From NCBI RefSeq assembly GCF_036507355.1, contig NZ_AP027877.1: a stretch of 64,000 nt of DNA; one strand, given 5' to 3'. Both the position numbers and the translations under genes were made by a program. The notes beneath the pieces were generated by a model. That model saw only the letters and a list, made by a program, of their open reading frames with translations. It ran no database searches and had not been told where the DNA came from. The DNA is from Escherichia coli. GTDB taxonomy: Bacteria; Pseudomonadota; Gammaproteobacteria; Enterobacterales; Enterobacteriaceae. Of the stretch, positions 2,222 through 18,989 are shown piece after piece; the first letter of the stretch is position 1, and every line of letters begins with the position of its first letter.

Positions 2222-3129
2222 AACGCGCTCCGGGTGTGAGACAGATTTTCAAAGGAGAGATCGGCATGAACCAGCAGTGTGCCGCGACGATGCGCCCAGC
2301 AGCCTGTAGAAACAGCAACGCCGATGGTTGACGGATGGCGGGCGGCAGATTCGATATGCACGCCCATCACTGAACTGTTGCCAGTCAGCCCTTGTGGACC
2401 AATCCCCAGACGGTTGAGTCCTTCTTCCAGGCGTAGCTCCAGCTCTGCCGCTTTTGGATTGGGATGGCGGCTGCCAATCGGGCGCAAAATGGCTTTTCGC
2501 GAGAGCACGGCGGCGGTTTCCACCGAGGTGGCGATGCCCACGCCCACCAGTACCGGTGGACAGGCGTTTACGGCGAGGGTGGAGATATTTTCGAAGACGA
2601 ATTTCACTACGCCTTCGTAGCCTTCTGACGGCATTAACACTTTCGAGCGGCCTGGTAGCGTGCAGCCGCCGCCTGCCATGTAAACTTCGATTTCCGCATC
2701 GTCACCGTCGGGGACGATATCCCAGGTGACCCACGGTACGCCGCTGCCGGTATTTTTGCCTGTGTTCACTTCGTCAAAAATTTCTACCGCATTGTGACGT
2801 AGTGGCGCTTTGACGGTTGCCTCTTCCACGGCTTGTTTGAGTATGCTTTGCAGCTCGCCAAGCAGTGGGAAGCGGGAACCGACTTTAACGAAGAACATAA
2901 TCTCCCCGGTGTCCTGACAGGCAGGACGATTCAGGTCAATCGCTTTTTGCATGTTGTCGAACATCGTATGGTAGATAATTTTCCCCATCGACGACGTTTC
3001 GGCATCCTTTAGCTGTTTTAGTTTATCCACCACGTCATCAGGCATTCGGGTAGAAATCATGGCGGTAAAGTTAGCGACAATCTCCGTCAACTTATTCACT
3101 GCCTGTTGCTTATTACTTTCGCTCATCAT
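2218..3129 (-). CDS. ttdA: L(+)-tartrate dehydratase alpha subunit
   Basis: ORF 2218..3183; start placed at ATG 3129 (MMSESNKQQ..., 303 aa); Fe-S hydro-lyase alpha-type sequence. Confidence 0.9.
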
Positions 3130-3335
3130 GGCAACTCCAGTTTTTGTATTTGTCTGGAAAAATTCACCGCCACAAACTACCACTAAAAATGTGGTTTTAT
3201 ATTTTTTGCCACCGTGAATATGTAATTAACAGTTCGTGAATCAACGCGAAAATAAGAATGAATATTGCGCCAGAGCAGGGAATGGCAATGTTTTGCGAAA
3301 TACACTGCGCTTATCACAACTGCGGATAATTAACG
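3130..3335. promoter_or_regulatory. Divergent ttdR / ttdA control region
   Basis: AT-rich 206-bp gap between divergent LysR regulator and its target operon. Confidence 0.5.
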
Positions 3336-4268
3336 ATGCTGAATAGCTGGCCTTTAGCCAAAGATTTGCAGGTACTGGTAGAAATCGTCCACAGCGGGAG
3401 TTTTAGCGCCGCAGCGGCGACCCTTGGGCAAACGCCTGCATTCGTCACCAAGCGGATCCAAATCCTTGAAAATACGCTGGCAACAACGCTGCTGAACCGA
3501 TCCGCTCGCGGCGTGGCGCTGACTGAAAGTGGCCAACGTTGTTACGAACATGCGCTGGAAATCCTCACCCAATATCAGCGACTGGTCGATGACGTCACGC
3601 AAATCAAAACGCGCCCGGAGGGGATGATTCGTATTGGCTGTAGTTTTGGTTTTGGGCGCAGCCATATTGCGCCAGCCATTACCGAACTGATGCGCAATTA
3701 TCCTGAGTTACAGGTGCATTTTGAATTGTTCGATCGACAAATTGATTTAGTGCAGGATAATATTGATCTGGATATTCGTATTAATGACGAAATTCCTGAT
3801 TATTATATTGCGCATCTGTTAACGAAAAATAAAAGAATATTATGCGCAGCACCTGAGTATCTGCAAAAATATCCGCAGCCACAATCCTTACAGGAATTAA
3901 GTCGTCATGACTGTCTGGTGACCAAAGAGCGCGATATGACCCACGGAATATGGGAGTTGGGGAACGGTCAGGAGAAAAAATCGGTGAAGGTTAGCGGGCA
4001 TCTTTCCTCCAATAGCGGCGAGATAGTGCTGCAATGGGCGCTGGAGGGCAAAGGGATTATGCTGCGTTCCGAGTGGGATGTGTTGCCGTTTCTGGAGAGT
4101 GGCAAACTGGTGCGAGTATTGCCGGAGTATGCACAAAGCGCCAATATCTGGGCTGTTTACCGGGAGCCGCTCTATCGCAGCATGAAATTACGTGTCTGCG
4201 TGGAATTTCTGGCGGCATGGTGCCAGCAACGGCTGGGCAAGCCCGATGAAGGCTATCAGGTCATGTAG
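3336..4268 (+). CDS. ttdR: LysR-family transcriptional activator of the ttd operon
   Basis: 310-aa ORF with N-terminal HTH and LysR substrate-binding domain, divergent from ttdA. Confidence 0.9.
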
Positions 4269-14182: not shown

Positions 14183-14261
14183 CCGGAAAGCGGTTCACAG
14201 ATCTCGCTTCGTACATGGCAGGCCTATTGACGCTGTTGTTTTTTCAACCTAGAGTAAAGGA

Positions 14262-14410
14262 ACAAGGGTAAGGGAGGATTTCTCCCCCCTCTGATGAGTT
14301 GTTAGTAAGTCGGGAAACTTAACAGTAACAACACAACCAGTATGATGACGAGCTTCATCATAACCCTTTCCTTCTATAAGGCCCCTTCCTCGGGAGGGGC
14401 TTTCCCGTTT
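14262..14410 (+). ncRNA. sibE: Sib-family antisense sRNA (antitoxin), copy proximal to hldE
   Basis: Promoter TTGACG(14227-32)-17 bp-TAGAGT(14250-55); terminator hairpin gcccctTcc/ggaggggc + U-tract at 14380-14410; fully antisense to the ibs ORF; ends approximate; D/E naming by synteny only. Confidence 0.7.
14302..14361 (-). CDS. ibsE: Ibs-family type I toxin, 19 aa (MMKLVIILVVLLLLSFPTY)
   Basis: Hand-translated minus-strand ORF, ATG 14361 to TAA 14302-04; hydrophobic 19-mer typical of Ibs; below ORF-track size cut-off. Confidence 0.75.
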   Translation of the reverse strand: MMKLVIILVVLLLLSFPTY

Positions 14411-14637
14411 CAGCCCCTTGCTGTCTCCCCGATTGTTGATGAGCGCCGGACCCCGCGCAACGCTTTCCCTGAAGCAGTTTTGCCTTCCCCGAGCGGTCAC
14501 GCAAAACGCTGCAACGTCCTGAGCATTTGCACCTTTTAGCGGAACGCAGATATAAAAAATCCCCGGCTTTTTGGGCCAGGGATATGTGTTAATGAAACCT
14601 TCTTGACGCTGATTTTTTTTCAACCTAAAGTAAAGGA

Positions 14638-14786
14638 ACAAGGGTGAGGGAGGATTTCTCCCCCCTCTGATTGGCTGTTAATAAGCTGCGAAACTTACGA
14701 GTAACAACACAATCAGTATGATGACGAGCTTCATCATAACCCTTTCCTTCTGTAAGGCCCCTTCCTCGGGAGGGGCTTTCCCGTTT
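14638..14786 (+). ncRNA. sibD: Sib-family antisense sRNA (antitoxin), copy proximal to yqiK
   Basis: Promoter TTGACG(14603-08)-17 bp-TAAAGT(14626-31); same terminator hairpin at 14756-14786; antisense to second ibs ORF. Confidence 0.7.
14678..14737 (-). CDS. ibsD: Ibs-family type I toxin, 19 aa (MMKLVIILIVLLLVSFAAY)
   Basis: Hand-translated minus-strand ORF, ATG 14737 to TAA 14678-80; paralog of the copy at 14302..14361. Confidence 0.75.
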   Translation of the reverse strand: MMKLVIILIVLLLVSFAAY

Positions 14787-14929
14787 CAGCCCTTTGCTGA
14801 CTCCCCGATTGTTGATGAGCGCCGGACCTCGCGCAACGCTTTCCCTGAAGCAGTTTTGCCTTCCCCGAGCAGTCACGCAAAACGCTGCAACAGCCTGATC
14901 ATTTGCACCTTTTAGCGGAACGCAGATAT

Positions 14930-16637: not shown

Positions 16638-17298
16638 TATTAAATTTCCTTTTGATTAATAAATTACAATATTTGGGGCCAGGGATTGTTTTCCGCCAAA
16701 TATCGCGTTGCAGAAAGTCGGCAAATAATTAACACTTTGTCTCCTTTAGTGAAAATTTTTCCTTCTTCAGGCTCCAGTAGTAAATAATGTATTTGGCCAA
16801 ATTGATCGGTGAGTTTTCCTTCGCAGGGATTACCTGAAGTGGCTTGATGACCGGTAATTAATGCCATGCTACCAATATATTCTTCTTCTGTAATAGCTGA
16901 ACTATGGTCGCGTGGAATCCAGGGCGCAACTATTTTACCGGTATAATGCACCGCAATAATCGTAAACAGTAAACTGACAGGAACCACGAACAGGTTCGAC
17001 AGTGGTGATTGCCAGACCATGATGCAGGCATGCTGCAACAGGATGCCAATAAGACCAAAAAAACCAGCCAGCAAGCAGAGAACGACGAGAGCTGGCAATC
17101 TTCCGATATTGAGATAATGAAGTGCCTGGCTAATATGACCTGTGGTTATGGAATCATAATGGTCAAGATGTGCATCAAGAGCACCGGAGAGCATGTGACC
17201 GCAGATAAGCGCTAAAATTTCTAAAAGGCCGATCAACAGTACAGGTGATGCTGCCAACTTACTGATTTAGTGTATGATGGTGTTTTTGAGGTGCTCCA

Positions 17299-17574
17299 GT
17301 GGCTTCTGTTTCTATCAGCTGTCCCTCCTGTTCAGCTACTGACGGGGTGGTGCGTAACGGCAAAAGCACCGCCGGACATCAGCGCTATCTCTGCTCTCAC
17401 TGCCGTAAAACATGGCAACTGCAGTTCACTTACACCGCTTCTCAACCCGGTACGCACCAGAAAATCATTGATATGGCCATGAATGGCGTTGGATGCCGGG
17501 CAACAGCCCGCATTATGGGCGTTGGCCTCAACACGATTTTACGTCACTTAAAAAACTCAGGCCGCAGTCGGTAA
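17299..17574 (+). CDS. insA: IS1 InsA (transposition repressor, zinc-finger/HTH)
   Basis: 91 aa, [40 protein letters not shown]... Confidence 0.95.
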
Positions 17575-17996
17575 CCTCGCGCATACAGCCGGGCAGTGAC
17601 GTCATCGTCTGCGCGGAAATGGACGAACAGTGGGGCTATGTCGGGGCTAAATCGCGCCAGCGCTGGCTGTTTTACGCGTATGACAGGCTCCGGAAGACGG
17701 TTGTTGCGCACGTATTCGGTGAACGCACGATGGCGACGCTGGGGCGTCTTATGAGCCTGCTGTCACCCTTTGACGTGGTGATATGGATGACGGATGGCTG
17801 GCCGCTGTATGAATCCCGCCTGAAGGGAAAGCTGCACGTAATCAGCAAGCGATATACGCAGCGAATTGAGCGGCATAACCTGAATCTGAGGCAGCACCTG
17901 GCACGGCTGGGACGGAAGTCGCTGTCGTTCTCAAAATCGGTGGAGCTGCATGACAAAGTCATCGGGCATTATCTGAACATAAAACACTATCAATAA
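17493..17996 (+). CDS. insB: IS1 InsB' frame (made as InsAB' transposase by -1 frameshift)
   Basis: 167-aa ORF in the -1 frame relative to insA; A6C slippery motif at 17550-17556. Confidence 0.9.
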
Positions 17997-18339
17997 GTTG
18001 GAGTCATTACCAACAGTACAAAGGAAATAGCGAAAAGATAAGGGGTATTATAGTCGGCGAATAAAATCATATGTCACTCCAATGTCCATTTAGTGACGCA
18101 ATATTTACTTTGGGATAGTTTCCTTGCTTGCATTTATCTTTGTTAATAATAACATATGTTAGAGAAGTTCTGGAAGAGAAAGTCTTTTAATATGGTTTTT
18201 TTATTTTTCACTAAAAAGTGTGATCGGGGACAATATATTTACGCACGTTATGTTTAAAGGCACTACACTGATTGGGGAATACTGAAATCAGAAAAAGCAT
18301 ATGGCCTTAAAAGGTATGCGATAACCGGAGGATGTGCTT

Positions 18340-18540
18340 ATGGATCATAGTCTTAATTCTTTAAATAATTTCGATTTCCTGGCGCGTAGTTTTGCCAGAA
18401 TGCACGCAGAAGGTCGCCCGGTCGATATTCTGGCCGTTACTGGTAACATGGATGAAGAACATAGAACCTGGTTTTGCGCACGTTATGCCTGGTATTGCCA
18501 ACAGATGATGCAAACCAGAGAACTTGAATTAGAACACTGA
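18340..18540 (+). CDS. glgS: GlgS (surface composition regulator, formerly glycogen synthesis protein)
   Basis: ORF 18334..18540; start at ATG 18340 gives the 66-aa [27 protein letters not shown]... protein. Confidence 0.9.
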
Positions 18541-18574: not shown

Positions 18575-18874
18575 TTATTCTGCTTTATCAATAGGCGGGA
18601 TAGCCGGAGGAGATTGAAGATCTGCTATCGAATTATTGCGCGCTTCCAGTTCACTGATGCGCTGCTCCAGTAACGCCAGTTTTTCACGAGTCCGTAACAG
18701 GACTTGCGTCTGTACGTCGAATTCTTCGCGGCTCACCAGATCGAGACGCGTCAGCTGCGCTTGTAGGGTTTGGCGGATTTTTTTCTCCACATCTTCCCCG
18801 AACTCCCTGATTCCTTTAGGCATTGATTCGTGAACCTGGCGAGCGATTTGCTCAATTTTTTTCGGGTCAATCAT
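18575..18874 (-). CDS. ubiK: Ubiquinone biosynthesis accessory factor UbiK (YqiC)
   Basis: ORF 18575..18934; start at ATG 18874 ([21 protein letters not shown]...), coiled-coil BMFP family. Confidence 0.85.
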
Positions 18875-18989
18875 TGTAGTTTCCCTGTACTGATAGGTGT
18901 TGAGTGCCATTGTAGTGCGATAAGGGTAAGTCATAAACCAGAATTATGTGAAGCTATGCGTTGCTGCCGCTAATCATTAGCGTTATAGT

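Follow-up and report, generated by a model that had tools for sequence, protein, structure and literature searches.

An IS1A-type insertion sequence with an intact A6C frameshift site in yqiJ of Escherichia coli

The question raised by this locus is how much can be concluded about the activity of an IS1 copy from an intact frameshift motif. The initial annotation of the window (the whole 64-kb stretch of DNA that was analysed) described a slippery sequence near the end of insA, with insB' open in the -1 frame, and proposed from this that the copy makes functional InsAB' transposase and is competent for transposition. That IS1 carries an A6C frameshift site is already known biology. The points to be settled are whether the element is complete, whether the site lies in the correct register, and how closely the copy resembles those that are known to move.

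A complete IS1 of the IS1A type, 768 bp in length, occupies positions 17244-18011 on the plus strand, as judged by reference comparison, terminal repeats and target-site duplication. Members of the IS1 family are recognized by their length (about 768 bp), by imperfect inverted repeats of some 23 bp at the two ends (GGTGATGCTGCCAACTTACTGAT / GGTAATGACTCCAACTTATTGAT), and by a direct target-site duplication of 8-9 bp. The size and the ends of the element at 17244-18011 conform to this description. The left terminal inverted repeat (IRL, 17244-17266) and its partner arm, the right terminal inverted repeat (IRR, 17989-18011), are each 23 nt long on the plus strand and 78% complementary, and both are identical to the ends of K-12 IS1A. 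A 9-bp direct repeat, AACAGTACA, is present on both flanks, the left copy at 17235-17243 and the right copy at 18012-18020. A search of the 64-kb window for further IS1 copies or pieces of at least 100 nt found none. A consensus scan picked out a promoter-like sequence (CTGCCA-16-TATGAT, 17251-17278, plus strand) that overlaps IRL and matches at 9 of 12 positions, which is no more than shuffled sequences give. Because the weak IS1 promoter, PIS1, has been placed partly over IRL (PMC12428005), the segment was assigned as a putative promoter, and it is consistent with the weak IS1 promoter.

The insA gene (17299-17574, plus strand) begins with GTG, ends with TAA at 17572-17574, and encodes a repressor of 91 aa with a zinc ribbon plus a helix-turn-helix (HTH). 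Both domains are recognized by Pfam at scores well above the cut-offs (Zn_ribbon_InsA, 1.3e-21, and HTH_Tnp_IS1, 4.7e-31; PF03811, PF12759), and the protein is identical to InsA of K-12 IS1A. The insB' frame (17472-17996, plus strand) lies at -1 relative to insA and, as the initial annotation had stated, is open, running from 17472 to a TAA at 17994-17996. Joining 17299..17553 to 17553..17996 gives an InsAB' protein of 232 aa that reads ...RHLKKLRPQ... at the junction on the A run. The fused protein scores 245 bits against the NCBIfam equivalog NF033558, 'IS1 family transposase' (cut-off 100), and the Pfam domain DDE_Tnp_IS1 (PF03400) is covered over positions 1-131 of 131 (2.3e-78, 261 bits), so that the zinc-ribbon, HTH and DDE matches span InsAB' from end to end. 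For exactly this InsAB' there are records from 255 contigs under the name 'IS1-like element IS1A family transposase', and on identical DNA PGAP annotates a two-piece CDS with a 'programmed frameshift'.

The open reading frame list also contains an ATG-initiated frame at 17493-17996 (167 aa), one base behind insA in phase, and the annotation of K-12 shows insB as a CDS of its own. It could thus be supposed that InsB is made alone, from the ATG at 17493, and that the slippery motif is irrelevant. This is extremely improbable. An InsB made in this way would be without the DNA-binding domains, which reside in InsA; the PGAP model for the identical DNA is a join across a programmed frameshift; and insB is reported to encode no separate protein, the frameshift being required (PMC12428005).

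The expression of a fused InsAB' therefore turns on the slippery site. The 11-mer TTAAAAAACTC lies at 17548-17558 on the plus strand, exactly where the initial annotation had put it, near the end of insA. It occurs once in the 64-kb window, against 0.02 occurrences expected from dinucleotide-preserving shuffles of the same 64 kb. Within it, the A6C heptamer A-AAA-AAC (17550-17556, plus strand) is the -1 slippery sequence. The codons of insA across the motif are TTA AAA AAC TCA GGC CGC AGT CGG TAA, so that the heptamer stands in the X-XXY-YYZ register with insA and the insA stop follows six codons later. The overlap between insA and the -1 frame is 100 nt long, and a scan of this overlap found no second slippery heptamer in register. 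A chance occurrence of the motif is ruled out by its uniqueness, its register and the complete IS1 around it.

In IS1 coordinates the A6C occupies positions 307-313, and it is found at the same place in all six of the K-12 and R100 reference copies examined. Neither motif nor position changes among K-12 IS1A, IS1B, IS1C and IS1D and R100 IS1R, and IS1F, at only 90.5% identity, likewise has both unaltered. With the form of the heptamer and its conservation both as described for such sites, 17550-17556 is predicted to be a programmed -1 ribosomal frameshift site. A6C has been reported as required for IS1 transposition, and bypassing the frameshift raised transposition about 1000-fold (PMC12428005).

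A frameshift stimulator downstream of the heptamer is not supported. The minimum free energy RNA fold predicted for 17548-17640, with a tool that is blind to pseudoknots, does not improve on shuffled sequences (z = -0.62), and Rfam, scanned with 17100-18150 at E<=1, returned zero matches. A possible pseudoknot in IS1 has been mentioned (PMC12428005), a kind of structure that is beyond the reach of the fold tool, and IS1 has been cited as a user of a low-efficiency frameshift motif (PMC4066793). Sites of a related kind are known from the IS3-family elements IS911 and IS150, where the heptamer is of the A-AAA-AAG type and the -1 slip takes place on an A-rich X-XXY-YYZ sequence as in IS1 (PMC5009743, PMC4066793), and from dnaX, which likewise has an A-AAA-AAG type site, an A-rich X-XXY-YYZ heptamer with a -1 slip. 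The IS3-family frameshift, like that of IS1, fuses an upstream DNA-binding reading frame to a downstream catalytic one. IS1 differs from the IS3 family and dnaX in using the less efficient A-AAA-AAC and in its transposase family, and the IS1 of the window differs further from these sites in that no convincing downstream stimulator is seen.

Sequence alone does not distinguish slippage by the ribosome from slippage by RNA polymerase. If the polymerase, rather than the ribosome, changed the frame on the A6 run, an mRNA with seven A residues would encode the same InsAB' with the same LKKL junction, as a reading of 17548-17560 shows. A run of only six A residues, however, is short for efficient slippage by the polymerase. 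Some IS elements do rely on slippage during transcription (reviewed in PMC5009743), but the literature on IS1 itself describes ribosomal frameshifting at A6C (PMC12428005, PMC4066793, PMC5009743), and a polymerase-based change of frame is most unlikely here. Slippage of the ribosome remains the preferred reading.

The arrangement of the element suggests the following course of events. A single transcript would start at the weak promoter region in IRL and carry insA followed by insB' in the -1 frame. Most ribosomes would terminate at the insA stop and release InsA, which would repress the promoter and compete for the ends of the element, while about 1-2% of ribosomes would move back one base at the A run, so entering insB'. 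The slip would yield the 232-aa InsAB' transposase, which would bind IRL and IRR and catalyse mainly replicative transposition, preferentially in cis. For IS1 in general, the promoter, the repression by InsA, the slip at A6C and the cis-acting, replicative mode are established (PMC12428005, PMC4066793, PMC5009743), and by analogy the copy in the window probably works by the same mechanism.

Whether the copy is competent depends on more than the motif, and the comparison with reference copies is informative in this respect. Alignment to the IS1 references places the window copy 2 nt from IS1A and 7 nt from IS1R, and revealed neither a stop in insB' nor an altered A6C, the two changes that the initial annotation had singled out as damaging to its claim. 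Relative to K-12 IS1A, 766 of the 768 nt are identical, and the two differences are T444G, which produces S130R in InsAB', and T486G, which is silent. K-12 IS1A and IS1E, the 'consensus' IS1, share with the window copy the length of 768 bp, IRL, IRR, insA and the context of A6C (305-315); they are inserted elsewhere, whereas the window copy sits in yqiJ. IS1R, the classical IS1 of plasmid R100, with its 7 nt differences, has the length, the ends, the A6C and Arg130 in common with the window copy, and its InsAB' (WP_095033700.1, named 'IS1B family' by PGAP) differs at residue 81 only, in the HTH region, where it has Phe81 and the window copy has Leu81, as in IS1A. Judged by its residues, the pairing of Leu81 with Arg130 in the window copy resembles a mosaic between the IS1A type and the IS1R type.

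The remaining K-12 copies all retain A6C. IS1B and IS1C carry L81F, S130R and L217Q, and IS1D carries L81F, S130R and H193Y. IS1F, an insB pseudogene, has 73 mismatches and an InsAB' truncated at 162 aa. The window copy has R130 in common with IS1B, IS1C and IS1D, but is without L81F, L217Q and H193Y, and without the truncation of IS1F; H193 and L217 are thus retained in its InsAB'. L217Q and H193Y are exactly what separates K-12 IS1B, IS1C and IS1D from R100 IS1R. According to Chen et al. 1998, His193 and Leu217 are said to be responsible for differential transposability among IS1 copies, and the comparison of the K-12 sequences agrees with these two residues.

In strain BW25113, IS1A and IS1E account for >99.9% of IS1 transposition, and for the other four K-12 copies the rate is about 1 per 10^10 cells (PMC12428005). 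For K-12 IS1B, IS1C and IS1D, small differences (9 nt) are enough for near-immobility despite A6C (sequence comparison; PMC12428005). Since A6C is also retained by the immobile K-12 copies and by the IS1F pseudogene, mobility needs the motif but is not guaranteed by it. This divides the proposal of the initial annotation: the requirements that can be checked in the sequence, on the way from motif to functional InsAB' and competence, are all present, but the motif by itself does not carry the conclusion, as IS1B, IS1C, IS1D and IS1F illustrate. The case for competence is a broader one. Because the ends, both frames, the slippery site and the key residues match copies that do transpose, the window copy, a textbook IS1 with a textbook frameshift site, is very probably transposition-competent, at the very low rate usual for the native element. 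Two copies were tested in PMC12428005, and the exact variant (L81 and R130, with the silent G486) is not among them.

It is conceivable, though improbable, that the window copy is structurally intact and yet effectively immobile, like K-12 IS1B, IS1C and IS1D. Those three copies keep A6C, both frames and both inverted repeats, yet move at the rate of about one in 10^10 cells given above (PMC12428005). Causes that might, at the same low probability, be responsible are S130R, T486G, the surroundings of the insertion, or InsA supplied by other copies and acting as a repressor. S130R is common to the three immobile K-12 copies, but it is also present in R100 IS1R, and the immobile copies have in addition L217Q or H193Y, absent from the window copy, at the two residues that reportedly mattered in Chen et al. 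1998. As for context, transcription of yqiJ runs into the IRR end of the element in the antisense direction, and flanking context has been reported to alter activity about 2-fold (PMC12428005). The distribution of the sequence itself also speaks against immobility. Full-length (768 bp) copies with 100% identity occur in E. coli chromosomes, where their neighbours are many unrelated genes, and on at least 15 plasmids, a spread which argues that this exact sequence has been mobile recently. The annotation given to such identical copies in many chromosomes and plasmids of E. coli is 'IS1-like element IS1A family transposase'. A 51-mer spanning G444 and G486 has an exact match in about 1,800-2,100 of 20,395 records (roughly a tenth), where the lower bound is taken from the spread of the matches listed and the upper bound, 2,137, is an identity band that may include partial matches. 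Competence thus remains the favoured reading.

The copy in the window has itself inserted into a gene. The insertion lies 59 nt into yqiJ, which is on the minus strand, after about codon 19. The disrupted 3' part of the gene occupies 16664-17243 (from the open reading frame list and the annotation of homologous loci), and the 5' 59 nt are cut off at 18012-18070, with the start codon at 18068-18070 (from the alignment to the empty site of strain PE164). In E. coli PE164, yqiJ is uninterrupted and has one copy of AACAGTACA. Given this empty site with a single copy, the IS1 in yqiJ is a genuine transposition product: the element at 17244-18011 has transposed into yqiJ with a 9-bp target duplication. 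The gene is annotated as encoding an OB-fold-containing protein and adjoins the flotillin gene yqiK; glgS is downstream of the insertion locus. On the minus strand, a predicted open reading frame of 197 aa (16664-17257) starts at a TTG within IRL and continues from the element into the shortened yqiJ. Comparable IS1-yqiJ hybrid frames are annotated by PGAP in strains X14-3 and BUCT2930.

At the same base of yqiJ, an unrelated strain, E. coli X14-3 (NZ_CP084055.1), holds another IS1 variant, of the IS1R type and 8 nt apart from the one in the window. This IS1 (2801-3568 of the compared locus) is oriented as in the window and flanked by the same duplicated 9 bp, AACAGTACA, and in both the window and X14-3 a frame can be traced from IRL into the truncated yqiJ. 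With a divergence of about 1.7% between the flanks of X14-3 and those of the window, the site in yqiJ looks to have been hit twice independently. Whether the site AACAGTACA, at about codon 19, is a nucleotide-level hot spot for IS1 or the insertion was selected is a more speculative matter, and that either applies, together with the notion, prompted by its presence in about a tenth of the records, that the L81/R130 form is an 'especially successful variant', is rather doubtful. As a gene, yqiJ was rejected as a general hot spot for IS1: the six positions found in 13 genomes are close to the number expected by chance, an estimate based on about 75,000 IS1 places in 5,426 genomes and on a junction query that favoured one orientation. 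Among the insertions in yqiJ, only the one at the same site in X14-3 stands out.

A probably active IS1 has thus knocked out yqiJ, and the value of the observation lies mostly in annotation. Further insertions, deletions or cointegrates could arise from this copy in the genome of its host. The locus also carries a caution: an intact A6C does not predict mobility. Since all K-12 IS1 copies, including the immobile ones, keep this motif, calls of competence should also consider the ends, both frames, and residues such as H193 and L217.

Several features of the surrounding region may be noted. The best complete RefSeq E. coli genomes are 99.4-99.6% identical to the flanks of the IS1. None of the GTDB species representatives contains the 41-mer across the left IS1-yqiJ junction, and for the exact YqiK protein of the window there is no identical protein on record. 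In the window, glgS (18334-18540) directly adjoins ubiK/yqiC (about 18575-18934, minus strand); the ygiL-yqiGHI fimbrial operon, found between glgS and ubiK in K-12-like strains, is absent here and in PE164. An IS1 near glgS/ubiK in E. coli ampC_0069 measured 767 bp rather than 768 in an end-to-end scan, and could be a copy with a 1-bp indel. Between hldE and yqiK there is a tandem-like direct repeat of 300 nt (14227-14526 and 14603-14902, 93% identity), the two units of which are adjacent ibs/sib type I toxin-antitoxin loci.
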